Positions 9,106 through 62,580 of a DNA stretch of 64,000 nucleotides are shown here, in pieces; positions within the stretch are counted from its first letter, which is position 1; every line of letters begins with the position of its first letter. The DNA comes from a virus, in the IMG/VR virus record IMGVR_UViG_3300015263_000962, positions 12,383 to 76,382 of that record; one strand, given 5' to 3'. A program made the translations under genes and the position numbers. Below the pieces are notes generated by a model. The model was not told the DNA's origin and did no database searches. It worked only from the letters and a program-made list of their open reading frames with translations.

Positions 9106-9486
9106 TCAATCAAGCAAATGATCGAACGGTTTCTTGTATCGCATACAATGGAAGATCATCGCCATCCGACGCTTCTCTTCATTGGTGATTTCCATATTCT
9201 TGTGCCAAGAGCGGCTCCAAGATGTTGTCACTCCCCGTTTGGTTTCGGTTTCGATTGGTCTGAAGTGATTTGACAACTCTTGACAAATACACATGACCAT
9301 TTCGGCTTCAGCAGAAAGACCGTGACAATCTCTCAGATCTTGCATGGCACAAGAACTGATCGTTGTCTTGTATGGACCTTTGCTGATTTCGATGTCCCGA
9401 GGGACGAAGGTATCGCATTCGTATGCGACCGGGTTGATCTTCTTGATCTCTAACTTCCAGCTTTGTTGTAGCCAGTGGTTTCTCAT
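9106..9486 (-). CDS. Small protein with major-capsid fragment (MCP ~275-302) and MRNHWL tag
   Basis: GAAAGGAG RBS; AMQDLRDCHGLSAEAEM..ICQEL vs MCP AQQDLRSQHNLDAEAEL..LAQEI. Confidence 0.7.
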   Translation of the reverse strand: MRNHWLQQSWKLEIKKINPVAYECDTFVPRDIEISKGPYKTTISSCAMQDLRDCHGLSAEAEMVMCICQELSNHFRPIETETKRGVTTSWSRSWHKNMEITNEEKRRMAMIFHCMRYKKPFDHLLD

Positions 9487-12261: not shown

Positions 12262-12693
12262 ATGAAGTTTTCACCCGCACCTGATGATCCTGAAATCACC
12301 GGGCAATTCCATCGCTTGGTGTCCGAAAACGGCGTCATCGCAATTGGCGTCTATCGGGTGATGTACGGCTTCAGGGTGCGTGCCGGGAAAGCCAAAGACC
12401 TGATGGGCTGCACGCTCGACTGGTGCGGAGGCGGCAACTGGCAGGACGTGGAACGTCTCTATTCGCTGGCCGTCTCAATCCTCTCACAACGTGAAGAAAG
12501 CCCGTCGTGTTTCGACGGGCTTCCCACTTGTTCCGAGGTCAAACCGTTCTTCCTCGACGAATGCTTCACGAAGACGTTGGCCGAAGCTGCTGGCCCTGAT
12601 CTTGAATTGATCAAGCTCCCGCCACCGCCTCCACATCCGCTGTTACAATTTTTGGATCAGCAGGACGACATCGACCAAGACGGTGCAGAATAG
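12262..12693 (+). CDS. Hypothetical protein
   Basis: 143-aa ORF following upstream gene. Confidence 0.55.
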   Translation: MKFSPAPDDPEITGQFHRLVSENGVIAIGVYRVMYGFRVRAGKAKDLMGCTLDWCGGGNWQDVERLYSLAVSILSQREESPSCFDGLPTCSEVKPFFLDECFTKTLAEAAGPDLELIKLPPPPPHPLLQFLDQQDDIDQDGAE

Positions 12694-15874: not shown

Positions 15875-17329
15875 TTAGATGATGAAGTTGGCGATGCTCA
15901 TGCGTGCGTAGAACTTCGCACCTTCACGGAGCAGCTTCTTGCCGTAGCGGGTCAGAATACCCTTGCGTGGGCAGAAGGATTCAGGATCAAGCACCACAGG
16001 TGTCTGTGTCAGCGGGACGTATGGGCAGTAGAAGTAGCCCGAGTCCATGTAGCTGTCGCCCTTGTAACCCAAAAGGATCTGGCCTTGTGGGAACAGCGGG
16101 TCTTTGTACAGACGCCATCTGTTGTTGATCGTACCGACGTACTGGATACCCAGCGACGAGGTGAACGTCTCAGATGGTGCTGGTGCGAAACCTGCGGTTG
16201 CCGTTTCGAAGACGGACGCAACTTCAGGCGAAGTGACGAGCCAGTTACATCCGCCACGGAGGGTCTTACGATGCACGACGTTCGAAACTTCGACGACCTT
16301 GACATACAGCGACTCGTACTTTTCCTTGATGGTGTCACCGAGGGCTGTGTTGAAGTCCCACACAGCGATAGTACCGGCGTTGTTGCGGAGGTCTGTAAGA
16401 ACCTCACGGTCGATTTCGAGGTTGATTTCCTGAGCCAAAACGGCTGTCAGTTCTGCCTCAGCGTCAAGGTTGTGCTGGGATCGGAGATCCTGCTGAGCTT
16501 CGTAGCTCCAGACAGCCTTCAGCTTGCGGGTCTTGGCGGCGATTTCTTCGCTTTCGACCACGAGGTTCACTTCAGGAAGATCCTGATTGCACTCCATGTT
16601 GTACTCGTAGCTCATGACGAGGTGGTTCGGGCCGGGAGCAACGTCCCATCCGATGGTGACTTCGCCAGTCACGAGGTCCAACGTACCGCTCGTCGGGTTC
16701 GATGTCGGAGCACCGATAGCCGAGAAGCTGAAGGTTCCGTTCTCTGCAACAACATAGGTTGCGACGGCGACCGAACCATCATAGACAGTACCGGTCATGG
16801 TGCCTGCGAGAACAGGAGTGTGCTCCAGCGGAGCGAAAATGGATGTCAGGTCATCGCCAGCGTCAGTGCTGGAAGTTTCGTTCTGCACGAATTGATGCGT
16901 GTAGAAGATTTCCAAGTTGCCATCACCGGATGCCAACTGCTGGAGCGATGTCACGTCGTCCGTTGGGAAGCCGCTTGGTGTCAGGTCGGCACCTCGCATT
17001 CCGCCCTTATTGGACGAGTAGCGGAAACGCAGGTAGTACACCAGACCAGTCGGGCCGAGCAATGGCTGGACCGAGACGATCTTGTTGGCGATCAACTGCG
17101 GGTAGATTCTGCGAACCAGCGGAATGCTGATTCTCTTGAACTGGGCGATGTCCCCAGTATCCGTCATCGCCTCATTCATAAGGCGTTGGTTTTCAAGAAG
17201 CACGGCGGCAGCGGCACGCTCTGTTCGGTTTGTGATGCCATCAAGCATCGACTTGCCGTTTCTCAGCGGACGTGACCAGCGGGCTTCAATCTGACGGGCT
17301 TCGTTAAGATATCTTGCGTTAAAAGACAT
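15875..17329 (-). CDS. gp23: Major capsid protein (T4 gp23-like)
   Basis: LLENQ, LVRR..PQLIA..IVSVQP..GPTG, AKTRKLKA.WS.EAQQDL, GYFYCPYVPL, PRKGILTRYG. Confidence 0.97.
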   Translation of the reverse strand: MSFNARYLNEARQIEARWSRPLRNGKSMLDGITNRTERAAAAVLLENQRLMNEAMTDTGDIAQFKRISIPLVRRIYPQLIANKIVSVQPLLGPTGLVYYLRFRYSSNKGGMRGADLTPSGFPTDDVTSLQQLASGDGNLEIFYTHQFVQNETSSTDAGDDLTSIFAPLEHTPVLAGTMTGTVYDGSVAVATYVVAENGTFSFSAIGAPTSNPTSGTLDLVTGEVTIGWDVAPGPNHLVMSYEYNMECNQDLPEVNLVVESEEIAAKTRKLKAVWSYEAQQDLRSQHNLDAEAELTAVLAQEINLEIDREVLTDLRNNAGTIAVWDFNTALGDTIKEKYESLYVKVVEVSNVVHRKTLRGGCNWLVTSPEVASVFETATAGFAPAPSETFTSSLGIQYVGTINNRWRLYKDPLFPQGQILLGYKGDSYMDSGYFYCPYVPLTQTPVVLDPESFCPRKGILTRYGKKLLREGAKFYARMSIANFII

Positions 17330-17341
17330 TTGGTCTCCTTA

Positions 17342-18247
17342 TTAAGCCTCTTGAATTCCAGAAAGAACTAGAAGATCGTTCAAGTGATCAGAGCCTTCCA
17401 TCAGCGTCTCATCATTCTTGCTCGATTTTTGTGCAGCCGGATTGACGTATTCATTAAGAATGTCTCCGTCATTAGCGGCTCTATGCCCACGCCCACTTGC
17501 ATTCTGTGCCTTGCTCGCTCTTTCTTTTCTTCCAACCTTCGAAGCTTCAGTGATAAGCTGGTTTGCAGCCTGTACTTGCTCGTTCAGTTTGTTGTTCTGT
17601 GACGAAAGCTTCACATTGCGTGCTTCCACGATTCTCATCTGGGCTCTCATCTGTTCGATCTGAGAATGTGCTTCTTCGAGCTTCGAAGAGGCAACGCCGT
17701 TGAGATCGTCACGGTCCATGTAGTCGGACAGGATTTCGGCCATCTTGGCGACGGCTACACGCTGTTCCGAAAGGGATGGATCGTTAAGAATGTCACGCTT
17801 TGCGTGCTCGTAGATTTCGGATTCCTGAAGGTTCAAGAACTCATCGACCTTATCGACCATGAAGTCCTTCATTTCCTTCAGCTTGTTGTCGAACTCGTCA
17901 TACAGTTCGACTTCGATGTTTCCGTTCTTGCCCTTCTCCTTCTGGAGTTCCTGATAGGCTTCTTCAAAGCCTTCTTCAAGAGCGGACTCGAATTCTTCTC
18001 GTTGCTCATCAATTCTCTTCATCAGAGAACCGATGATTTCATAAGCTTGCTGATATCCAGCTTCAGCGATGGCTTCGTCGGCTTGCTTTTCTTCAGCAAG
18101 CTGTTCGTAAGCTTCATCAAGCTTCGTTTGGAATTCAGACTTGAGTTCGTTGTAGTTCTCGGCCATCAATTCTTCGACGGCCTTGGCAACCTCACTCACT
18201 TGATTCTCTGGGAGAATACTCTTCAGTGCTTCGGTGATTCTGTCCAT
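17342..18247 (-). CDS. gp22: Prohead scaffold/core protein (gp22-like)
   Basis: Acidic coiled coil between protease and MCP; start overlaps protease stop. Confidence 0.8.
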   Translation of the reverse strand: MDRITEALKSILPENQVSEVAKAVEELMAENYNELKSEFQTKLDEAYEQLAEEKQADEAIAEAGYQQAYEIIGSLMKRIDEQREEFESALEEGFEEAYQELQKEKGKNGNIEVELYDEFDNKLKEMKDFMVDKVDEFLNLQESEIYEHAKRDILNDPSLSEQRVAVAKMAEILSDYMDRDDLNGVASSKLEEAHSQIEQMRAQMRIVEARNVKLSSQNNKLNEQVQAANQLITEASKVGRKERASKAQNASGRGHRAANDGDILNEYVNPAAQKSSKNDETLMEGSDHLNDLLVLSGIQEA

Positions 18248-18948
18248 TAGCCTAACCTCGACTTGTACTTCTGTGTTTGAGATTTCACAATGCCGCCCAA
18301 ACAAGCGATAAGTGCTTCTTTGTTAATCGTATCTATGCAGCTACTCTCAGATTTAATATCCGATTTCGAAGATACGACTCTTTCCAGTGGTCTCGCATCC
18401 GCCCGTGGAGGAGCCACACTCTCTTTCGCAACAACTTTCTCTTGGAAAGCGGCAAACGTCGAAGGGTCAGCAACAGCGTCAAAGGTGATAAGCTTGTAGC
18501 TTTCGCCAATAACTAAGATGCCATCTTCGTTGGTCGATCCGTTTCCTACACCTCTCGAACTAATTCCGACTCTCACGCCATCATCGATCAAAGCTTTAAG
18601 AACTTTGCCGTGAGGTGTGTTCAAGATCTCGCCTTCGCCCATCAGCACATTGCCTTCCCACCAGAGGCGAGTAACAATGTGTGAAGCATTGGCATAGTGA
18701 ATGATGCTATCCGTAGGGTGATCGAGTTCACCGATCAAACTTCTACCGTCGATTGCTTCTTGAAGGCGTTTCACGCTTTCATCAAGGACGGCAAACGGAT
18801 ACATTCTCTTGTTTTTGTTGACTGCTTCTGCCTCTTGGAATTTCCCTCGGAACTTCACGAGCCCACGAGAGCTTTTCGTGGACTCAGTGAGTTCGAATTC
18901 AAAACCAGAGTGCGTGCAACAATCAACGAGTAACATTTGTTGCTCCAT
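18247..18948 (-). CDS. gp21: Prohead protease (gp21-like)
   Basis: NKNKRMY, GELDHP, TPHGK, GISSRGVG, FDAVADPS. Confidence 0.95.
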   Translation of the reverse strand: MEQQMLLVDCCTHSGFEFELTESTKSSRGLVKFRGKFQEAEAVNKNKRMYPFAVLDESVKRLQEAIDGRSLIGELDHPTDSIIHYANASHIVTRLWWEGNVLMGEGEILNTPHGKVLKALIDDGVRVGISSRGVGNGSTNEDGILVIGESYKLITFDAVADPSTFAAFQEKVVAKESVAPPRADARPLERVVSSKSDIKSESSCIDTINKEALIACLGGIVKSQTQKYKSRLG

Positions 18949-18967: not shown

Positions 18968-20704
18968 TTAGCGATCCACAACCAGATCAGTTTCTTTGCC
19001 GTCTTTCATCTTGTAGCCCTTGCCACCAACTCCACCGGCTTCCTTCGGAACGTATGGATTCTGGAGATCAGGCCATGTGTCGCCAGAACTCCACGTTGAG
19101 TGGTGCTGGCCTGTGGCTTCTTTGTCCACGCCCTTTTCGCCCTTCATGGTGTAGTCACCGAATGGCTTCGGAACGTATGGGTTCTTAAGCTTCGGGAACA
19201 CGTCCCCGCCGCCGACTTGACCCCAACTGTTGTTCCGCATGGTCTTGGCGTTCTTGCCACCCTTGTAGTTGTGATTGTCCTGTCCAATGGCAGGAGCCTG
19301 ATCACCCCATTCGCCTTCATGACGGCCAGCGACGGCAGGAACCTTTGCGTTCTTAGCCATCTGCGGGTGATCGCCCGAGACTGTCAGGTGTGGCTTGTTG
19401 GAGACATTCCACTTCTCAGAAGCACCTTCAACATTGGCTTCCAGAAGCTTCTTGACCCAAGATGCAGCTTCGTGTGCAACGCCCAGATCTGGTCTGAGTT
19501 CACCATTGAGGATGTCAGCGATCTCGTTGAGATACATTGCTGCGCCTCGCTTGATGTCTGCGTTGCCGTCTGCTTCGCCGATCTTGTAGACTCTCTCCAA
19601 AGACTCATACAAGTCGGAGAATGCCTTGCGTTCCAGACCGAAACGCTGATCCAGCGATGGATAGAATTGGTGAACAACACCTTGGAAGTGGTCATAAGGA
19701 TCTTGTCCAGATTCGCACTTCGGAGCACCTGCCAGAGCCAAGATCTCTTGGACCTTTTCTCGGTAGCAGTTCTGTGCATGTCGCAGAATTCCTTCTGCCA
19801 TGAAAGCACAGTGTTGGTCGTCATAGTTCTTGACGCCGATGTTTTCGAGTGCTTCAGCAACGATGTCGGCCAGTTCGGTCTGCGTAACCATCAAAAGCTG
19901 AGGGTACGACTTTGCGATGTGGTCGAGGGCTTCTTCCAAACCTTCTTGATCAGAGAAAGCGTTCTGCTGCTTAAGCTGTGCAATCGCTGCGCAGAACTTC
20001 TGTTCGCTGGTCAATGCCGGAACCGACGAACGAACGTCATGGTTCTTAGCATTTGGAACAACCCAGTTGAAACTCTTGATGCGAGCTTCGTTGCGAGCTT
20101 CATTTGTAGGAATTCGCAGGTCTGTCACGTTGCCCTTCTCGTCTCGCTTGGCAACAGACTCAGAAAGAGCAGGACCATTACGCATGTAATCAACGTAGTC
20201 CAGCACGTTTTGAGCGGTGACATATACGTCTTTCAAACCAGCACGGTCACAAGCTTCCACAACTGCTTCTCGAAGAGTAGCTTCTTTCACTGCTTGTGCT
20301 GCTTTGGTGTTCTTCTGTGGCTTTCCTTCATTCCAGTGAACCATCTCAAGATAGTTCTTGAACAGGTTTTTGGCTTTTGCGTGGTCGTCCACCAATACGG
20401 CATCGATCATTTCAGAAAGTGCTTCTCGCATCTTGCCCTTGCGGCTGGACTCGTCGATGACGAGTTCTTCGATGTTGCTGAAGGTGACATGATCATTCTT
20501 GATTTCGTATCCGGCGTGGACGAAGGTTTTCTGTGGTGTTTGATAAACCACAGTGCTTTCATTGAAGCACTTCAGTCCCAGTTGTCCTTTGCCCAACGTC
20601 TTTGTGAGAATGTGTTCGGCTTCGACTAACTCACGCTCAGCCGTAGTAACTGATGTCTTTTCGATTTGATCGAAGGCATCTTGCTTAATGAGTTTTCGTC
20701 TCAT
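18968..20704 (-). CDS. Putative prohead core/head-associated protein
   Basis: 578 aa between portal and protease (T4 gp67/68 position); repeated P.L.NPYVPK...YxMK in C-terminus. Confidence 0.55.
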   Translation of the reverse strand: MRRKLIKQDAFDQIEKTSVTTAERELVEAEHILTKTLGKGQLGLKCFNESTVVYQTPQKTFVHAGYEIKNDHVTFSNIEELVIDESSRKGKMREALSEMIDAVLVDDHAKAKNLFKNYLEMVHWNEGKPQKNTKAAQAVKEATLREAVVEACDRAGLKDVYVTAQNVLDYVDYMRNGPALSESVAKRDEKGNVTDLRIPTNEARNEARIKSFNWVVPNAKNHDVRSSVPALTSEQKFCAAIAQLKQQNAFSDQEGLEEALDHIAKSYPQLLMVTQTELADIVAEALENIGVKNYDDQHCAFMAEGILRHAQNCYREKVQEILALAGAPKCESGQDPYDHFQGVVHQFYPSLDQRFGLERKAFSDLYESLERVYKIGEADGNADIKRGAAMYLNEIADILNGELRPDLGVAHEAASWVKKLLEANVEGASEKWNVSNKPHLTVSGDHPQMAKNAKVPAVAGRHEGEWGDQAPAIGQDNHNYKGGKNAKTMRNNSWGQVGGGDVFPKLKNPYVPKPFGDYTMKGEKGVDKEATGQHHSTWSSGDTWPDLQNPYVPKEAGGVGGKGYKMKDGKETDLVVDR

Positions 20705-28740: not shown

Positions 28741-29115
28741 TTAATTGTTTTCGGCGTAGTTGTATTCGTAGGAGATAACGAATCCGTCTTGAAGTTCTTC
28801 TGGGATCGCAATCGTGCCCATTTCATAACAAATGAAACCAAATCTCTCATCTGTCTCCTTCCATTGCAGTCGCCCATCTCCATCATCTGTGAACAACTTG
28901 TTGTTGCAAATACCGAAGATTGAGTTGTTCAACAAGCTGTGAAATTTCAGATTCGCCGTCACACTCATCAACTGTGCGACCCTTTCCCACTTCTGAGGCT
29001 TCTCGTCTTGGACGAACTGCCATTCATAGCAAAGATCCAAAGTGCATCCTTGAGCCAATTCTACGAGATTGAGCGTGTCTTTTACGTCACGTCTCTTCAA
29101 CCAATGATTTTTCAT
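28741..29115 (-). CDS. Stand-alone copy of MCP region ~125-248 with MKNHWL tag
   Basis: LVELAQG-CTLDLCYEWQFVQDE vs MCP LQQLASGDGNLEIFYTHQFVQNE; VISYEYN vs VMSYEYN. Confidence 0.7.
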   Translation of the reverse strand: MKNHWLKRRDVKDTLNLVELAQGCTLDLCYEWQFVQDEKPQKWERVAQLMSVTANLKFHSLLNNSIFGICNNKLFTDDGDGRLQWKETDERFGFICYEMGTIAIPEELQDGFVISYEYNYAENN

Positions 29116-50372: not shown

Positions 50373-51395
50373 TTATGCGTTGCCTCCCGAATTTTCCGCA
50401 GCAATTAAGCACCCACGAGCCACAGAATAGACTGGATCACTGGGACGGATCACCCGACCAATATCCACAGGAATCCCCGAATTGCGAACCATCTTCTCGA
50501 AAAACTTATCGAATCCCGGTGGGCTGGCTGTTCCACCAGCAACCACGATGTCGATTGGTTGATCCAGACGAGCGTTCTTATCCTTGTTTTCTTCAAGGCC
50601 CTTCTTCAGTCCGCCGACCGTCTTCTCGATCATCAGTTCGTACTGAGTCTTGATGGCTCGTTCGACGAGTGTGTTGGGTTCTTTGCCCAGATCAATCTTG
50701 GTTTTCTCCTTGTTGATGAAGGCGATGGTCTCGCCAGTTGCTTTAGCAGCCTGACGATCAATCCAGTCACCCGAGTTCACAAGTGCGAAGCTGAAGACCT
50801 CGGCACCGAAGAGGGAGAAGGCCACGTTGACCATACCTGCGCCACAGGAGATGCCGATGCCGGTGAACATCCTGTCGGCCAGTTCTGAGTACACAAGTGC
50901 CATGCCTTCATTGATTGGACGGGCATCGACTCTGTATCCCTCTTCGCTGCTGTATGCCTTAAAGATGGACTCCAGAATCTTACGGTGATAGTCGGCGTCT
51001 GTTTCTTCGTTGATGGCATTGGCCGGAACGGAGTAGTACAGAATCTCTTTGTCGTAAGAGATTTCGCCGAGCAGGCTGTGAATCATGATGTTCATGATCT
51101 GGAAGGCATCCTTTTCCTTCGGATTCACACATCCGTCTTTCATTGGACGTTTCAGATCGATTTGGTTCATGGTGTAGGCCATGTTGATTGCAGCCTCACC
51201 CAACGCATACGCCATGTTGGCGTCTTCACGATGAATCAAGGGCACTCCCGATTTCTTCATCATGTTGAATACGAAGTCGTTCTGGAGTTCCATTTCCAAG
51301 AAAGCATTAACCTCTCTCTTGTAAACAAAATCGCCAGCTTCGTTCCGCTTGCAGCAGATCAAGTTGTATGTTCCGCAGTCGAAACCGATGCTCAT
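50373..51395 (-). CDS. Actin-like ATPase (MreB/ParM superfamily)
   Basis: IGFDCGTYN (phosphate 1), INEGMA, GISCGAGMVN (phosphate 2), VVAGGT (adenosine), VARG. Confidence 0.85.
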   Translation of the reverse strand: MSIGFDCGTYNLICCKRNEAGDFVYKREVNAFLEMELQNDFVFNMMKKSGVPLIHREDANMAYALGEAAINMAYTMNQIDLKRPMKDGCVNPKEKDAFQIMNIMIHSLLGEISYDKEILYYSVPANAINEETDADYHRKILESIFKAYSSEEGYRVDARPINEGMALVYSELADRMFTGIGISCGAGMVNVAFSLFGAEVFSFALVNSGDWIDRQAAKATGETIAFINKEKTKIDLGKEPNTLVERAIKTQYELMIEKTVGGLKKGLEENKDKNARLDQPIDIVVAGGTASPPGFDKFFEKMVRNSGIPVDIGRVIRPSDPVYSVARGCLIAAENSGGNA

Positions 51396-56264: not shown

Positions 56265-56303
56265 AACCATACAAGTGATACACTATTGCCAAGGAGGTGC
56301 CTT

Positions 56304-57782
56304 ATGTTTCAAGGAAAGAACCTAATCAACGGCGAATGGACATCTGACAAGTCCAGTTTCGAAGCCGTCAACCCCTCAACTGAGCTAATCTACGGGACGT
56401 TTCCCAACTCAGGCGAGGCAACTGTCAAAAGTGCGGTAGCTGCCGCCCGAGCGGCATTCGCCACTTGGAAAAAGGAAAGCCGAGTTCGTCGAGGAGAGTT
56501 GTTTGACAAGCTCGCCCAATTGCTTAAGAGGGACCATGAGCGAATCCGAGACGCCATCTCAATCGAGACCGGGAAGAATCTTAACGAATCCCACGCAGAG
56601 GTCATCGAGGCCCTCCACATGTGCCAGTTCGCTGCTGCATCTGGAAGAGAGCCACATGGACAGTGTGTTGCGTCCGAACTTCCTACGAAGGACGCCTACG
56701 TCGTCAGGAAGCCTCGTGGCGTTGTTGCTGTTATCTCTCCTTGGAACTTCCCTGCCGCTATTGGCTCTTTTTGGAGTTCCGCTCCTGCTCTCGTGGAAGG
56801 TAACTGCGTCGTTCACAAACCTTCTGAACTTACCCCAATGGTCAACCAGATCATCGCTGAACTCTATGAGGAAGCAGGATTCCCCGCAGGAGTCTTTAAT
56901 CTCGTTCATGGTGATGGGGGTGCTGGTGCGGTTCTGGTGAGATCTGAGGTGGATGTCATCCTCTTCACCGGATCAGCGGAAGTCGGTCAAGACATCCGCA
57001 AGCATTGTGCTGAGACCCATTCCAAAACTTGTAGTATCGAATGTGGCTCCAAATCCGCCACAATCGTCTTTGAAGACGGCGATCTCGATCTGGCCCTAGA
57101 TGCCACCGTCGCCTCTTCCTTCAAGCTGAGCGGCCAGCGGTGCGTTTCTTCGAGCCGAATTCTCATCCAGAGATCCATCTTCGATGGATTCAAGGACAAG
57201 TATGTGGAGCGAGTGCAGAACCTTATCACTGGCGATCCTTTCAGCGAAGGCCCTCCATTCTACGGCCCGCTGATCTCAGAAGAACAGATGAACAAGGTGC
57301 TCGACTTCAACCATCTGGCACGCAACGATGCCGACACTACCGTCTATTTGGGTGGTGGACGAGCACAGAATCCAGATGGCAGCGTCAAGGGCTGGTTCTT
57401 GCGTCCCTTTGTGTATAGCTGCGAGTGGGCCGACAAGCCATTCTTGAAGCAGGAAGTCTTCGGGCCACACGTCGCCTTGATTCCCTTTGATACGCTCGAA
57501 GACGCCATCCGCATCTACAACGATACAGACTATGGGCTTGCCTTGGGGGCAATCACAGATGATTACCGCAAGCATCGAGTGCTGGCCCAAGAATGTACCA
57601 CTGGGATGCTCTATATCAACGGAGGCAGCATCGCTGCCGAGAGCCATCTTCCGTTCTCAAGTTGGAAGAAGAGTGGCTACGGGGCCAGTGCGGCAGCCAC
57701 ATGGAAGGCTGTGACGCACACCATGGCGGTGACGGTCAATTACGAGTCTGGCAAAGTCAGTTGGGCTCAGGGAATGAAGTAG
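56304..57782 (+). CDS. Aldehyde dehydrogenase
   Basis: ISPWNFP, KPSELTP, FTGSAEVG, ECGSK, SGQRC, EVFGP. Confidence 0.95.
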   Translation: MFQGKNLINGEWTSDKSSFEAVNPSTELIYGTFPNSGEATVKSAVAAARAAFATWKKESRVRRGELFDKLAQLLKRDHERIRDAISIETGKNLNESHAEVIEALHMCQFAAASGREPHGQCVASELPTKDAYVVRKPRGVVAVISPWNFPAAIGSFWSSAPALVEGNCVVHKPSELTPMVNQIIAELYEEAGFPAGVFNLVHGDGGAGAVLVRSEVDVILFTGSAEVGQDIRKHCAETHSKTCSIECGSKSATIVFEDGDLDLALDATVASSFKLSGQRCVSSSRILIQRSIFDGFKDKYVERVQNLITGDPFSEGPPFYGPLISEEQMNKVLDFNHLARNDADTTVYLGGGRAQNPDGSVKGWFLRPFVYSCEWADKPFLKQEVFGPHVALIPFDTLEDAIRIYNDTDYGLALGAITDDYRKHRVLAQECTTGMLYINGGSIAAESHLPFSSWKKSGYGASAAATWKAVTHTMAVTVNYESGKVSWAQGMK

Positions 57783-57790
57783 GAGGACAA

Positions 57791-58246
57791 TTGGCTTTCA
57801 CTGTTGAATTCCGGGAGCCGATCTATGATTCAGGGACACACCAATGGATCTTGATCGGCTCTCTGGATCTTAAGATCGATGAGCGGCACTATCGCACTCT
57901 CACCAAGAAACTTTGGTTGTCACAAGAAGCACGCTTCAATGAAGGGTGGTTCTTGCAGGCAAAGCGAACGATTCGTGAAGAGTTGGAACAAAGGGCAAAG
58001 CGGGAACTGGCTGCCATGTTGCAGCATCGGCCTCCGCAAGAAGTTGCCACGTTTGAACGCATCAGCATTCCGTTGGTCCGTCGCATCTATCCACAGTTGA
58101 TTGCCTCACAGATCGTCGGTGTTCAGCCGTTGTCTGGGCCGACATCTTTGACCTTCTATGAACGATTCAGATATTCAGGCAATCGAGGCGGCTGCATCGT
58201 CAAGGAAGCTATCGAGCAAGTCAACTGGAAGACAGAGGGTTTTTGA
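57791..58246 (+). CDS. Protein with MCP 64-110 (Gol-region) copy and NWKTEGF tail
   Basis: AGGAGG RBS, TTG start; 36/47 aa identical to own MCP. Confidence 0.85.
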   Translation: MAFTVEFREPIYDSGTHQWILIGSLDLKIDERHYRTLTKKLWLSQEARFNEGWFLQAKRTIREELEQRAKRELAAMLQHRPPQEVATFERISIPLVRRIYPQLIASQIVGVQPLSGPTSLTFYERFRYSGNRGGCIVKEAIEQVNWKTEGF

Positions 58247-58587
58247 TGACACAAGGGATTGAACTTCAGATCAACATTCAGGTGCCCGTTCCGCAAGGTA
58301 TGGAAATCCAAGGCATTAGTGTGAGCTTCGGCGAACCAACACTGACCTACTATCCGCCGCAGTATATTCCACGACAATTGTTCGGACAGCAGCAGCAGCA
58401 TTATGTTTCGCCTCAACATCGTGAGATCGAACTGAACATCCAAACCGAAGAAATTCGAGCCCGAGAGCGAGGGTTGCGTGCTTACTGGTCAGAAGAGTCA
58501 GAGGCAGATCTGTTGGCTTGGAGTCAACAACCATGGAAGCCTACTCCAAAAGATGAGAAGGCAAATTGGAAGGAAGAAGGTTTCTGA
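58246..58587 (+). CDS. Protein with MCP 253-282 copy and NWKEEGF tail
   Basis: TGATG coupling; 14/30 aa identical to own MCP. Confidence 0.75.
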   Translation: MTQGIELQINIQVPVPQGMEIQGISVSFGEPTLTYYPPQYIPRQLFGQQQQHYVSPQHREIELNIQTEEIRARERGLRAYWSEESEADLLAWSQQPWKPTPKDEKANWKEEGF

Positions 58588-58602: not shown

Positions 58603-59475
58603 ATGAAATCGATTGGAATCATTGGGCAGGGATTTGTAGGAAGTGCGGTGTTTGATGGCATGATGCACGCCTTCGATGTTTTCGCTTACGATTTGAAGTA
58701 TGGGATTGTGTCCACCAAGACATCGATCACCAACGTCGAAATTGACAAGGGCTATGCTCATGTGTTGGAGAAGTCGGATGGGCCGATCTTCATTTGTTTG
58801 CCAACCCCCATGGATGAGGATGGTCGTTGCTCGACGTACCTCGTTGAATCCGCAATCCAAAAATTGGAACAACTGGCGACAGAGAAAGGTCGAGTTCTCG
58901 TCATCAAGTCCACCGTGCCGCCCGGAACCACCGAGCGAATCAACAGTTGGGCCACGAAGTTCCATGTCTGCTTCAATCCAGAATTCCTGCGAGAAGCCAC
59001 AGCGGCAGAGGACTTCAAGAATCAGGATCGAATCATCATTGGTGGGCCACGAGAAGGCACCAACGTCCTCAAGGCTATGTACGAGAAGGCTTACCCTGAC
59101 GTACCTGTGACCAAGACATCTTCGACAATCGCAGAACTGGTCAAGTACACCACCAACATCTTTCTGGCAACTAAGGTGGCCGTCGCCAACGAGATCGCAC
59201 AAGTCTGCGAGGCTCTGGGCGAAGACTATGACAAAGTGGTTGAGTATGCCACGAAGGATAAGCGGCTGGGGACATCACACTGGGCTGTACCGGGGCCAGA
59301 TGGAAAGAAGGGCTTTGGTGGTTCATGCTTCCCGAAAGATCTGAATGCTTTCATTCAGGTTGCAGAAGACAATGATGTTGAGTGCTCGACGCTTAAGGGA
59401 GCTTGGGAAACGAACCTGAGAGTTCGGCCTGAGAAGGACTGGGAACAACTCAAGGGACGGGCCGTCGTCAAATAA
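58603..59475 (+). CDS. UDP-glucose/GDP-mannose dehydrogenase family protein
   Basis: GIIGQGFVG, CLPTP, KSTVPPGTT, NPEFLRE, GFGGSCFPKD. Confidence 0.93.
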   Translation: MKSIGIIGQGFVGSAVFDGMMHAFDVFAYDLKYGIVSTKTSITNVEIDKGYAHVLEKSDGPIFICLPTPMDEDGRCSTYLVESAIQKLEQLATEKGRVLVIKSTVPPGTTERINSWATKFHVCFNPEFLREATAAEDFKNQDRIIIGGPREGTNVLKAMYEKAYPDVPVTKTSSTIAELVKYTTNIFLATKVAVANEIAQVCEALGEDYDKVVEYATKDKRLGTSHWAVPGPDGKKGFGGSCFPKDLNAFIQVAEDNDVECSTLKGAWETNLRVRPEKDWEQLKGRAVVK

Positions 59476-59527: not shown

Positions 59528-59845
59528 TTAATCCTTAGAGATCTTCACGCAAAAACGTGGAAGATAGAATTCACCTGACTCAGTTTTGATCAGGACTCTC
59601 TTGGGTTCGACATTTAAGACGGAACCACCAGTAGTTGTGAATTCGCAAACCAGTTGTTCTGCATCAGTGCATTCTGTTTCAATCTTTTCCAGCAGCTTCT
59701 TGCTACTCACCTTCGAGTGAACGCCCTTCCCGATGTATTTCTCATTGGGATCTTCGGGGCGTGCGCCAACGAAGAAGTCAGACATGTCTTTTTGTTCTGA
59801 CAACCAGTTCTTAAAGTCGTTTACTGATAGATGCCGTCTATCCAT
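59528..59845 (-). CDS. Hypothetical protein with CTS-like N-terminus
   Basis: SVNDFKNWLSE. Confidence 0.6.
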   Translation of the reverse strand: MDRRHLSVNDFKNWLSEQKDMSDFFVGARPEDPNEKYIGKGVHSKVSSKKLLEKIETECTDAEQLVCEFTTTGGSVLNVEPKRVLIKTESGEFYLPRFCVKISKD

Positions 59846-59851
59846 TTGAGT

Positions 59852-60721
59852 TTACTCCTCCTGATCGACGAAAAAGTCAAGTGCATCCTGTTCACTCGAT
59901 ATATACACAGCATTAGTGTAATTCCCGCCGCTTGAGTAGTCTGCCACAACTACTTCTCTTCCCTCCTGATGCGTCAGCCAGTACAGGTTGGCGTCGATGA
60001 TTTCTTTAGACCTTAGATGTTGAGGGTAAGTCCATAGGCCGTTTTCCAGTTGTACCGCCTGATCTTTCTTCTCTGTAAACGATGCGTCACAACAAAGCAA
60101 TAGCAGTTTCCTTACATCAAATTGGAACGACAACCCGATAGCGGCACAGACTGGATTTCTGTAATCATCAATGAAATATGCCTCGTTTTTCTCATATCCG
60201 AACACTCTTTCCGGTGTCGGCTGATAGACGTAAACATCCCCCCGATACCTTTCGTAGAACTCGTGGTTGGCCCTGATCGACCCCACGCAAACTGGAAAGT
60301 ATGGGGACTGTCGCTCTGGGAGATCGGTTAAGACTTCCCGGTAAGGGTTGTTTACGATGTGGGCGTTGATGGATCGCTGGCTTTGGGGGTCCACTTTTGG
60401 ACCCATCAACTTCCATCCTTTTAAGGCACCATTGATTGTCAGAATGCAGACATCTGGTGGCAGTTTACTCAGAAGTTGATGCCGATTGGCAAAGTCGTAA
60501 CCATCTGAAACAACAACCACTTTGTGGAAGATGATCTTCTCTTCCGAGATGCGTGCCCGCTTGCGGTTGCGTTCCTCATTCCTTAGAAGGTTGGGATAGT
60601 CGGACTTGTCATACATGTGCGAGATGGAAATGGGTGCGATCCCCTTTTTGGTGAAGTTTCGCACCCAGACATCTCCAGCACGAATGTATTCGTTTGATGA
60701 ATAGGTTGTTTTTATTCTCAT
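59852..60721 (-). CDS. Hypothetical protein
   Basis: 289 aa; start overlaps upstream stop. Confidence 0.65.
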   Translation of the reverse strand: MRIKTTYSSNEYIRAGDVWVRNFTKKGIAPISISHMYDKSDYPNLLRNEERNRKRARISEEKIIFHKVVVVSDGYDFANRHQLLSKLPPDVCILTINGALKGWKLMGPKVDPQSQRSINAHIVNNPYREVLTDLPERQSPYFPVCVGSIRANHEFYERYRGDVYVYQPTPERVFGYEKNEAYFIDDYRNPVCAAIGLSFQFDVRKLLLLCCDASFTEKKDQAVQLENGLWTYPQHLRSKEIIDANLYWLTHQEGREVVVADYSSGGNYTNAVYISSEQDALDFFVDQEE

Positions 60722-62580
60722 GGTACAGGGCAGGGTGTAATCATGACGCAATTGCGTCCATCAGCACTCTTGTCCAAGATCTGGTCCATTGTGATCTTGA
60801 CCTCGATTGGTGCTCCCCTATAAACGAGTTCCACTTCTGGCATTTCTTCAGGGAAGATCACCGGGATGCCGATGTCATCTGGAATCTCCAGTGTAATCGA
60901 ATCCGGCATATTGACGTTGATTACATCCGGTCCCTCGTAAGCCATAACGATTCGCTCAGGAATTGGTTGGGGCATTTCCACCTTGATCGATGGAAATTCG
61001 ATTGGCTCCACTTTGACTGTTACCTCGGTCTCAACCTTCACAGGGATCGCATCGCCCTTGTAGATCAAATCGATGGCCTCTGGAACCTCAGTCGCATCAA
61101 AGCGAATCATGTTTGGAATCGGCTGGTCTGGACCATAGATCTTGATGCTCTTGGGAATGTCCACTTCGGAGCAATCCAACTTGATGCACTCAGGGACATC
61201 CCGAGTGTCAAGCTTGAGCTTGGGCATCTCAGATTCCTTCGGCGGCACAATCTTGATCTCTTCGGGGATACCCACAGACTGATACTCGACCTTCATCGTG
61301 CCGGATGCTTCGAACAAGTCGGCAAATTCCTCGCCGAACTCACTCACTAAGGCTTGGTCAGCAGCGAAGATTTCTGGAGTCTTTACATCCTTAGCCAATG
61401 TCAGTGCGACCTCCATATCAGGAGGCGTACCCCAATCAACTTCCAGCCGTGGCAGACTTGCGGCATCCAAGGCCAGCACGATGCTCGAAGCTGGCGGGAT
61501 GATCACAATCGTCGGCGGAATCGGCGGATCGATGATGATTGTCGGAGGCACCGGTGGGTCGATCAGAATGATGCTCGGCAGGTCCGGGCCAATGATCGAA
61601 ACGATGCTCGTTGTAATGTTGATCGGGTTGTCCGGGCCTGTAATCGTGACGTTACTGACCAAATTGATGTCCGGTCCTGTAATGACAGATGGAATCGGGC
61701 CAATCTGTCCTTCGAGCGATACACACGGAAATACCTGTGGCGGAATGTTGATGTCTGGTTCTGGCACATCACATGGTACGAACGTGAAATCCGGGAACTC
61801 AGGCACTTCCGGGATCGGGATGTCAAACACCTCTTGAATCTGAGGTGGCGGTTCCTGTGGTTCAATGCGTTCAATCGGAGTCTGGATAATTTGGCACTTG
61901 TCGTTCGCCACAGATACCACTGGGTCCACAGAAGCGTTGAGAGCATATCTGTGTGTTCCTTCGAGGCTCGTTGTGGTGAATTCGCCGTCACCAAAATCCA
62001 AGCGAAATGAGTTGATTGTGCCGGGTGGCGTGATCTCTACCAGAAACTCGGCCAGTTTCCCCGTCACAGGGTCATCTTCAACGACATTGAAGGTGAAATT
62101 GATGTCAGGGCAGTTGTAGTCATCGAAGATGACTTGGAGTTCTTCAAGATTGCGGATTCTCCAATCCAAGGTTTCCTGTCGGGGATCGAAGTTATAGCCG
62201 ATGAAATCCTCGGTTTGCAGAATCGCATCCACCAGTTGGTTGTGGTGTTCGGCTACCACATAGCTGCGAATCCACGAACATTTCCGATTGAATTTGGTCT
62301 GCGTCCCACCCAGATTCCGAGCACACTTCTTTAATTTATTGACCTTACCATTCTCGTCTTTGGCTACAGCATCATAGTACAGAAGTTCTCCGCTCAGATT
62401 GGCAAAACCGTTGTCTGCCCAGATCTCTTGGGCATCGGCAGCAACCGGCATGATGTCGATTTCTTGAGCCCACGGCGCATTGTCACTGGTCAGCTTGGTC
62501 TCAGTCGTGTTGTAGACCAAGAACAGCGTATGATCTGTATCAATTGCTTCAGGATATGTGGGTACTGGAGGAAATGTCAT
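60718..62580 (-). CDS. Putative virion protein with PKD-like domain and Pro/Ile-rich repeats
   Basis: LDFGDG...HRY PKD motif; repeated IP..I.. units. Confidence 0.7.
   Translation of the reverse strand: MTFPPVPTYPEAIDTDHTLFLVYNTTETKLTSDNAPWAQEIDIMPVAADAQEIWADNGFANLSGELLYYDAVAKDENGKVNKLKKCARNLGGTQTKFNRKCSWIRSYVVAEHHNQLVDAILQTEDFIGYNFDPRQETLDWRIRNLEELQVIFDDYNCPDINFTFNVVEDDPVTGKLAEFLVEITPPGTINSFRLDFGDGEFTTTSLEGTHRYALNASVDPVVSVANDKCQIIQTPIERIEPQEPPPQIQEVFDIPIPEVPEFPDFTFVPCDVPEPDINIPPQVFPCVSLEGQIGPIPSVITGPDINLVSNVTITGPDNPINITTSIVSIIGPDLPSIILIDPPVPPTIIIDPPIPPTIVIIPPASSIVLALDAASLPRLEVDWGTPPDMEVALTLAKDVKTPEIFAADQALVSEFGEEFADLFEASGTMKVEYQSVGIPEEIKIVPPKESEMPKLKLDTRDVPECIKLDCSEVDIPKSIKIYGPDQPIPNMIRFDATEVPEAIDLIYKGDAIPVKVETEVTVKVEPIEFPSIKVEMPQPIPERIVMAYEGPDVINVNMPDSITLEIPDDIGIPVIFPEEMPEVELVYRGAPIEVKITMDQILDKSADGRNCVMITPCPVP

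Follow-up and report, generated by a model that had tools for sequence, protein, structure and literature searches.

The 64,000-nucleotide stretch of viral DNA analysed here (the window; positions 12,383 to 76,382 of IMG/VR virus record IMGVR_UViG_3300015263_000962) encodes a protein of 151 residues, open reading frame 1 (ORF1; 57791..58246, + strand), in which a private N-terminal domain (N-domain) is joined to a copy of a short stretch of the major capsid protein (MCP), equivalent to the Gol peptide of T4 gp23, and to a C-terminal tag. ORF1 is a real, conserved, tagged gene of which the Gol motif is the constrained part. We consider it probable that, in a clade of uncultured huge (~0.5 Mb) T4-like phages, ORF1 has an accessory function, its product being a tagged molecular mimic of the MCP's N-terminal arm (N-arm).

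The TTG start of ORF1 (57791) lies 4 nt behind a Shine-Dalgarno sequence, AGGAGG (57781..57786, + strand), which is read from the sequence and overlaps the stop codon (57780-57782) of the preceding aldehyde dehydrogenase (ALDH) gene; the start position agrees with the database copy of the protein (P0004) and with orthologs, which begin M-[AP]-[FY]-x-V-E-F. Along the + strand follow the N-domain (residues 1-80; 57791..58030), confined to five orthologs; the MCP-derived segment (residues 85-134; 58043..58192), delimited by a Pfam Gp23 match to residues 85-132 and by codon comparison, and containing the Gol-peptide equivalent (residues 91-119, corresponding to T4 gp23 94-122; 58061..58147), which is the most constrained section of the gene body; and the tag, VNWKTEGF (58220..58243). 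The stop codon of ORF1 overlaps the start codon of a second gene, ORF2 (113 residues; 58246..58587, + strand), in the sequence TGATG (58244..58248, + strand), as it does at L036, an ortholog locus; the two genes are, to judge from this overlap, translationally coupled. ORF2 carries another MCP piece, residues 60-89 (58423..58512, + strand), homologous to MCP residues 253-282 (T4 gp23 249-278; BLASTP E 8e-7), and ends in the same tag as ANWKEEGF (58561..58584, + strand). The MCP itself, a gp23-type protein of 484 residues (15875..17329, - strand; Pfam Gp23 E 1.8e-84; T4 gp23 structures E 1e-32), is encoded 41 kb from ORF1 on the opposite strand, where its gene adjoins those of the scaffold (17342-18304), prohead protease and portal (18968-20704).

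The capsid-derived segment and its conservation

Residues 88-134 of ORF1 (58052-58192) align without gaps, over 47 codons, to residues 64-110 of the MCP (17000-17140, - strand), with 36 of 47 residues identical, exactly as an earlier note on this DNA had reported; the same note had estimated that about 19 of the identical residues use a different codon, and the count is 20 of 36. Nucleotide identity between the two segments is 65%, the proportion of synonymous differences (pS) is 0.755 (saturated) and that of nonsynonymous differences (pN) is 0.21. ORF1 matches the MCP by BLASTP with E 2e-24 and the Pfam Gp23 profile (PF07068) at residues 85-132 with 45.4 bits (cut-off 24.4; E 9.8e-12), scores by which the match between ORF1 and MCP is far beyond chance. 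A PDB-wide phmmer search aligned ORF1 residues 94-140 to T4 gp23 97-143 (E 0.011), and on the strength of this alignment ORF1 91-119 is equated with the T4 Gol peptide, 94-122; over the aligned positions 94-119, 14 of 26 residues are identical. The proposed homology to the T4 Gol region thus holds, by the Pfam match as well as by the alignment to gp23.

AlphaFold2, run on a 44-row alignment of ORF1, gave predicted local distance difference test (pLDDT) values of 92-97 for residues 1-80, modelled as beta strands (5-43) against a long helix (45-79), and of 50-72 for residues 81-151, which comprise motif and tag. In this model, a private folded body displays the flexible motif from the capsid protein and leaves the C-terminal tail free. 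For the N-domain, Foldseek found nothing in the PDB at E <= 0.001, the top match of a wide structural search (Z 7.6, LptE-like) fell within the tool's noise guide, and exhaustive HMMER searches found no relatives outside the five orthologs. The N-terminal 84 residues showed no relation to the MCP or its delta domain (nothing by BLASTP; hhalign probability 0.5%), in keeping with the earlier suggestion of a Gol copy fused to an unrelated N-terminal domain; for this reason the extension of the BLAST alignment into ORF1 residues 46-84 is not evidence of homology. Compared by hhalign with the N-terminal parts of proteins that carry the ORF2-type piece (L007, L022, L009), the N-domain reached 55%, over 15 columns only. 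The T4-type capsid-targeting leader (M-x-x-[FY]-x-E-[FW]-[IL]-x-E, then an L/I-x-E site) is absent from ORF1, whose N-terminus reads MAFTVEFREPIYD.

ORF1 resembles gp24 of T4 and other full-length MCP paralogs (PF07068, HK97 fold) in being a second gp23-derived gene of its genome that scores above the Pfam threshold. Unlike them, it holds only positions 1-48 of the 376 in the Gp23 profile and lacks a complete HK97-type fold, having in its 151 residues a small alpha/beta domain and flexible segments, and capsid proteins were absent from its structural matches; because of the missing fold and the short profile coverage ORF1 is not a possible shell subunit. The likeness to T4 Gol is closer: ORF1 91-119 is homologous to it, this is the most conserved part of the clade's MCPs and of the mini-proteins described below, and the ORF1 motif is predicted to be flexible, as is the active T4 peptide. 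The Gol peptide of T4 is internal to the capsid protein, however, and we know of no separate gene for it in that phage, whereas the ORF1 copy has a gene to itself, with a private domain and a tag, and any partnership with EF-Tu or Lit is putative. Beyond Gp23, ORF1 has no name in Pfam, PHROG or NCBI-type naming, and in the ESM Atlas its leads, all below threshold, pointed to clusters of short viral proteins bearing Gp23. A Pfam "Gp23" match on a short ORF in huge-phage contigs can, as ORF1 shows, mark a real gene class and not a truncated call.

Orthologs were sought with a word-based protein search and with exhaustive HMMER searches in which the N-terminal 84 residues were run against 1.84 billion representatives. 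Four proteins were found besides ORF1/P0004 (P0005/L036, P0095, P0096 and P0006), making five orthologs in all, and all share one plan: a confidently folded N-domain, a flexible Gol-equivalent segment and a tail ending NWKxEGF. Across the five, invariant positions amount to 15/32 (47%) in the Gol-equivalent segment (residues 88-119) and 5/8 (62%) in the tail, against 23/80 (29%) in the N-domain, 1/15 (7%) in residues 120-134 and 0/9 in the spacer. The constraint earlier proposed for the whole segment accordingly sits on residues 88-119, residues 120-134 being poorly conserved. A metagenome scan with the ORF1 alignment returned L036 alone, the one locus available for comparison at the DNA level. 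Between ORF1 and L036, synonymous sites are saturated in each region and pN is 0.24-0.34, so that, with saturation and a single ortholog locus with DNA, the ratio of nonsynonymous to synonymous substitution (dN/dS) is given as an upper bound and not as a value. A 165-nt contig from an independent study spans ORF1 codons 4-14 with one amino acid change, to the residue carried by the orthologs, and four silent nucleotide changes; among contigs of four DNA runs, the Gol region was not covered outside the likely source run.

In 77 MCP genes of the clade, taken from IMG/VR, the segment is almost invariant (97.9% identity in protein, 76.8% in DNA), and the ORF1 segment reaches a DNA identity of at most 66.7% to any of them. 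Together with the saturated pS and the codon comparisons with the MCP and L036, these figures sustain the contention that the peptide, rather than the DNA, is conserved. A protein set of 5.8 billion sequences held nothing matching the segment above ~80%. A tree of the 47-residue segment, with few columns and no starred branches, served only for branch lengths and nearest neighbours.

These data bear on two other readings of ORF1: pseudogene pieces left by the decay of a capsid gene that had been duplicated or captured, and DNA recently taken from the MCP of another phage. The pieces in ORF1 and ORF2 are colinear with the MCP (residues 64-110, then 253-282), they could plausibly derive from one ancestral MCP copy that was broken up, and the motif is degenerate in some family members (L006, L020). 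Such decay is at odds with orthologs that are intact and have the same boundaries, starts and TGATG coupling, with protein conservation in the face of saturated synonymous sites, with an N-domain predicted with high confidence to fold, and with selection at the peptide level on the shared tag. Capture from a related phage's MCP, which the earlier note had entered as a caveat, finds no near-identical donor among the 77 clade genes or in the phage's own MCP, the best DNA identity being 66.7%, and the segment is kept in the orthologs. Remnant and capture are already contradicted by these results and are so improbable that we set them aside; on sequence grounds, ORF1 is neither a pseudogene nor a recent capture.

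The C-terminal tag and the family of Gol mini-proteins

A back-translated tag pattern run over IMG/VR, followed by six-frame reading, identified dozens of small ORFs ending [VIF..][ND]-W-x-x-E-G-F-stop in related huge-phage contigs, 43 of them distinct. Partial genomes hold 2-10 tags each (ten in a 239-kb contig), compared with 0 for a reversed control pattern, and tandem arrays of tagged ORFs are frequent, with five in L002/L024 and three in L006/L020. The five of L002 (5756-6822, equivalent to L024 7161-8227; contig IMGVR_UViG_3300014205_005590) end [VN/VD]W[KQ][KR]EGF-stop, and one of them holds the second half of the Gol segment only (VQPLVGPTGLVYYLRWRH); the MCP of this contig is 81% identical to that of the window. 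Codon use within the 43 tags is free: glutamate is encoded by GAA in 25 and GAG in 18, glycine by all four codons, phenylalanine by TTC in 21 and TTT in 22, and three stop codons are used, while W, E, G and F are invariant even in neighbouring genes that the search pattern had not picked. It is this free choice of codons at E, G, F and stop that marks the tag as conserved at the level of the peptide.

A DNA or RNA element, either the ribosome-binding site of the gene that follows or a cassette recombination junction, would offer another account of NWKxEGF and would reduce ORF1 to a Gol fragment with junction sequence. Purine runs resembling AAGGAGG are indeed found inside many of the tag codons, the stop codon often coincides with the start of the following gene or lies within a few bases of it, and tagged ORFs stand in tandem arrays. 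Yet all synonymous codons are in use with W, E, G and F unchanged, many tagged ORFs have no close downstream gene, and the gene after ORF2 starts 16 nt past the ORF2 stop with a purine-rich site of its own; we therefore hold such an element to be very improbable. As far as codon usage can tell, NWKxEGF on unrelated small proteins is a peptide-level tag.

The cargoes of the tag include predicted membrane-anchored proteins and many unrelated sequences, with capsid pieces enriched. Among 34 tagged ORFs searched against Pfam and PHROGs, Gp23/major head protein was matched in five, the Gol ones not counted, and the remaining matches were scattered and weak. In this the tag resembles the peptides that direct proteins into shells: the capsid-targeting sequence of T4 is N-terminal and is cleaved after L-x-E, the cargo-loading peptides of encapsulins are C-terminal, and both, like NWKxEGF, are short terminal motifs common to otherwise unrelated proteins. 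NWKxEGF differs from them in sequence, differs from the T4 signal in being C-terminal, and is found also on predicted membrane proteins, a distribution that makes capsid loading less likely than docking to a hub in the cytoplasm.

Two candidate connections of the tag were discarded. A host short linear motif as its source was rejected, as the pattern gave 111 hits in 185,579 bacterial and archaeal genomes, near a rough chance estimate of ~70, and in the 80 loci examined few hits lay at real ORF ends and none formed arrays; an apparent excess of hits in Saprospiraceae did not match ORFs and gives no clue to the host. An actin-like (Volactin) filament as the hub was likewise dismissed, since the 595-kb phage LR756511, the closest complete genome (MCP 77% identical), has an actin homolog and lacks the NWKxEGF tag, and no actin homolog was found on the tagged contigs, which are fragments.

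ORF2 is predicted on its own to be mostly disordered. The profile of its family aligns with MCP residues 261-306 (hhalign 96.7%, E 4.6e-10), and its MCP piece corresponds to T4 gp23 249-278, the strand directly before His282 and Met284. No relatives of ORF2 were found by the word-based protein search or in isolate phages; they were reached only through synteny and the tag. Two further small genes of the window, both on the - strand, copy other parts of the MCP: one (28744-29115) its residues 125-248, the insertion domain (E 0.002), and the other (9106-9486) its residues 271-303 (E 6e-6). In place of the C-terminal tag these two have an N-terminal M-[KR]-N-[HY]-W-L leader. Together the four genes span most of MCP 64-303, in pieces 64-110, 125-248, 253-285 and 271-303.

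A Gol mini-protein in some form was present in every relative examined, in several builds. The tail may be joined to the entire MCP N-terminus of ~110 residues (P0007, P0008), the motif and the tail may follow a short leader (P0009, P0080, L001) or a transmembrane helix (P0017, P0036), and in the metagenome protein P0047 a copy of the start of the MCP spine helix (LATRIAQEINVEIDREV) is joined straight to Gol and a tail variant, IDWKTHGF. Another metagenome protein, P0066, has a twin-arginine-like signal (MKRRDFLKAIAASAAAV...) ahead of the motif. A class B build, of 83-97 residues (P0072, P0078, P0079, P0081, P0084, P0088), ends instead in a K-rich stretch followed by W-R-D-I-x-x-P-W-E-x-S. At L183 (3001-3505) the next ORF, otherwise unrelated, has a similar tail (RSILEDWEVTQDSG), which points to a second, independent address tag on the same capsid motif.

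Some relatives carry less of the motif. A 150-residue ORF of LR756511.1 (~234.3-234.8 kb; L039 1498-1950, - strand) stops right after the first motif half (FDKITIPKINRIYPQLLL-stop), as does a 75-residue ORF of L007 (3988-4215; YKRISVPLVRQIYPEL-stop), and in L042 (G003:229039-232158) a reverse-strand frame of 175 residues begins with a T4-like capsid-targeting leader, MGFKEWLLKE, runs straight on into a stretch that mimics the N-terminus of the mature MCP (VGTSTGDIAGFRRISIPMWRRMWPP) and finishes in unrelated sequence. From this arrangement the L042 protein looks like a capsid-targeted cargo with the capsid N-arm at its processed end. In 20 mini-proteins of various builds, MCP positions 64-81 (except K65), 87-90, P93, L96 and Y99 are kept at >=85%, with their neighbours relaxed; in T4 numbering these are 91-108, 114-117, 120, 123 and 126, nearly all in or at the edges of Gol 94-122.

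Candidate partners and roles of ORF1

ORF1 retains one interaction element of a larger protein from the same genome, as do the microProteins of plants and animals (LITTLE ZIPPER, Id proteins), which are likewise small and presumably act by competition. Those act on eukaryotic transcription-factor dimers, whereas the parent of ORF1 is a virus shell protein, an address tag is added, and the mode of action is putative. With its flexible, constrained motif, private scaffold and address tail, ORF1 would best be read as a competitive mimic of the N-arm. The displayed motif would occupy the partner site that normally binds this stretch of nascent or unassembled MCP, the tag would dock the ORF1 complex to a shared hub, and ORF2, made in step with ORF1 through TGATG, would do likewise with the next conserved capsid piece.

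The partner best documented by homology is host EF-Tu, through its domains II/III, which we put forward tentatively as a possible ligand. In T4 the free Gol peptide, of 29 residues, attaches to domains II/III of EF-Tu, which the e14 Lit protease is then able to cleave, the first ~100 residues of gp23 bind more stably, and since Gol is the most conserved part of gp23 it has been suggested that gp23 of all T4-like phages meets EF-Tu (PMC3014915). EF-Tu would suit ORF1 because the motif is peptide-like and context-free, and because some builds include the first quarter of the MCP. A partner in head assembly (scaffold core, portal whiskers or a neighbouring capsomer) is almost as probable a ligand, and some other ligand altogether may equally be involved; a head-assembly partner would fit because the copied pieces are all contact elements and because the pieces in ORF1 and ORF2, neighbours in mature gp23, come from coupled genes. 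In the T4 prohead, before expansion, gp23 has a disordered N-terminus (as far as L106) on the inside of the shell, where it probably lies on the scaffold; the N-arm and N-fist are formed from it later, and Met98, His282 and Met284 face the portal whiskers (PMC9546572).

If head assembly were the function as well as the source of the ligand, the mini-proteins would cap contact surfaces of unassembled MCP or bind the scaffold or portal, and might thereby prevent off-pathway polymerisation, aid the start of assembly, tune the very large capsid size or poison the assembly of a co-infecting relative. The four copied pieces (64-110, 125-248, 253-285, 271-303) are all contact elements in T4, namely the N-arm/N-fist, the insertion domain on the neighbouring subunit, and a strand and helix of the P-domain; the ORF1 piece (near T4 Met98) and the ORF2 piece (before His282/Met284), whose genes are coupled here, are adjacent and portal-facing in mature gp23 (PMC9546572). 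The fusion of a T4-like capsid-targeting leader to a mature MCP N-terminus mimic in L042 and the presence of some Gol mini-protein in every relative examined point the same way. Set against these are the position of ORF1 outside the head-gene block and on the opposite strand, the occurrence of NWKxEGF on predicted membrane proteins and unrelated small proteins, and the lack of the tagged form in the closest complete genome, LR756511. Because the MCP segment is invariant in the clade, the 11 residues at which ORF1 differs are not explained by co-evolution with its own MCP, which weakens an assembly role further, and we think such a role unlikely, if well worth considering.

An anti-defence decoy is less likely still. 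ORF1 and the other capsid-piece mini-proteins would engage sensors of the MCP or of the MCP/EF-Tu complex (Lit-type proteases, Avs7/8/10, CapRel-type) and blunt abortive infection, either by binding the sensor without activating it or by shielding EF-Tu. Gol is the classic phage protein pattern read by a bacterial suicide system through EF-Tu, and MCP sensing with EF-Tu is known both from Lit (PMC3014915) and from Avs7, which senses capsid proteins and incorporates EF-Tu (PMC13581612). The copied pieces are the most conserved stretches of the MCP (97.9% identity in protein and 76.8% in DNA within the clade) and natural targets of pattern recognition; the slot that holds ORF1 is hypervariable in the number and type of its genes and the tags turn over fast, as is typical of genes in an arms race; the placing of ORF1 in an operon with metabolic genes, on the other strand from the head genes, hints at expression that is not late; and an Acb1-like anti-CBASS gene lies within the window. 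Against this, the free Gol peptide of T4 suffices to activate Lit, so that a faithful mimic should trigger the defence and a simple decoy role is not obvious (PMC3014915); and a Gol mini-protein in every relative examined is more like a core need than an optional counter-defence. Likeness to a PADLOC or anti-defence family did not come to light either, though no search aimed at it was made.

A bolder form of the decoy proposal extends to the whole clade and is, in our estimation, a long shot. These huge phages would systematically cut the MCP into separately encoded, address-tagged microproteins (Gol/N-arm, insertion domain, P-strand, spine-helix start) that act as decoys or shields against immunity sensing capsids or EF-Tu complexes (Lit-, Avs7/8/10- and CapRel-type); NWKxEGF, the class B tail and the N-terminal leaders would be exchangeable tags that bring them to a neutralising hub shared by all. 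If this were true, the capsid-piece microproteins would be the first case of a phage using natural 'pattern decoys'.

Several observations weigh against N-arm mimicry by ORF1. Half-motif relatives exist (L039 of LR756511, the 75-residue ORF of L007, L042 of G003), and half a motif may be too little for Gol-type EF-Tu binding. Separate genes for the insertion domain, the P-domain strand and the start of the spine helix, parts with no known link to EF-Tu, favour a capsid-wide over an EF-Tu-specific explanation. LR756511, with an MCP 77% identical, does without NWKxEGF, so the tagged form is dispensable or replaceable, and a hub that also receives predicted membrane proteins is not obviously capsid-related. 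The Gol mimic envisaged in the earlier note is supported in part, by the homology and by the small stand-alone gene, but to explain ORF1 through Gol and Lit alone takes too narrow a view, given the C-terminal tag, the coupled ORF2 with its own MCP piece and the wide family of tagged capsid-fragment mini-proteins.

Literature searches found neither the tag strings nor any description of free-standing, tagged copies of phage capsid motifs, decoys or microproteins. Several immune families are now known to be triggered by capsid proteins, in some cases jointly with EF-Tu (PMC3014915, PMC13581612), and the Gol stretch is nearly invariant in T4-like capsid proteins. As a free-standing, selected and tagged protein in several independent builds, the Gol stretch is both a ready reagent and a natural experiment for asking what the motif binds outside the capsid, whether copies of their own structural motifs serve phages in managing immunity or assembly, and where the terminal tags of huge phages dock.

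Neighbouring genes and the mini-gene slot

ORF1 and ORF2 occupy a slot bordered on the left by the ALDH gene (56286..57782, + strand; Pfam Aldedh E 8e-129; synteny in L020, L007, L022 and L031) and on the right by a UDP-glucose/GDP-mannose dehydrogenase-like (UDPGDH-like) gene (58603..59475, + strand), recognized by Pfam and by synteny, in which the C-terminal domain of the family is unmatched in Pfam. In the window, L020/L006, L007, L022 and L031 the slot holds one to three tagged genes, and at L036 one more tagged gene is present besides ORF1 and ORF2; the position is fixed, and genes of the ORF1 and ORF2 types recur there jointly.

A frame running into ORF1 from within the ALDH gene (57593-57790, + strand) is also open in the distant ortholog P0096 (residues 1-66), and through it gene callers lengthen ORF1 by ~66 residues; it looks like an out-of-frame overlap with the 3' end of the ALDH gene, a by-product and not a real extension. 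At position 57790, one base before the ORF1 start, the window has A, while the contig of the likely source run and that of a second study have G. To the right, two genes of the window on the - strand, 59528-59845 (105 residues, FKNWLSEQKD...LPRFCVKI) and 59852-60751 (~290-300 residues), are syntenic with the slot in L007, L020, L022 and L031, and neither has a Pfam match.

Pfam hits of the window's ORF set, a pooled output not assigned to individual ORFs, include the Acb1-like anti-CBASS protein (E 4e-7), peptidases C39 (E 2e-16) and M28 (E 3e-40), an intein splicing domain (E 6e-12), ferritin-like and CREG/PNPOx-like proteins and two GT9 glycosyltransferases. The 595-kb phage LR756511 encodes an ortholog, 61% identical, of an actin-like gene of the window (50376-51395, - strand; Pfam Volactin, E 2e-69), and an actin-family cytoskeletal protein seems to be conserved in this huge-phage clade.

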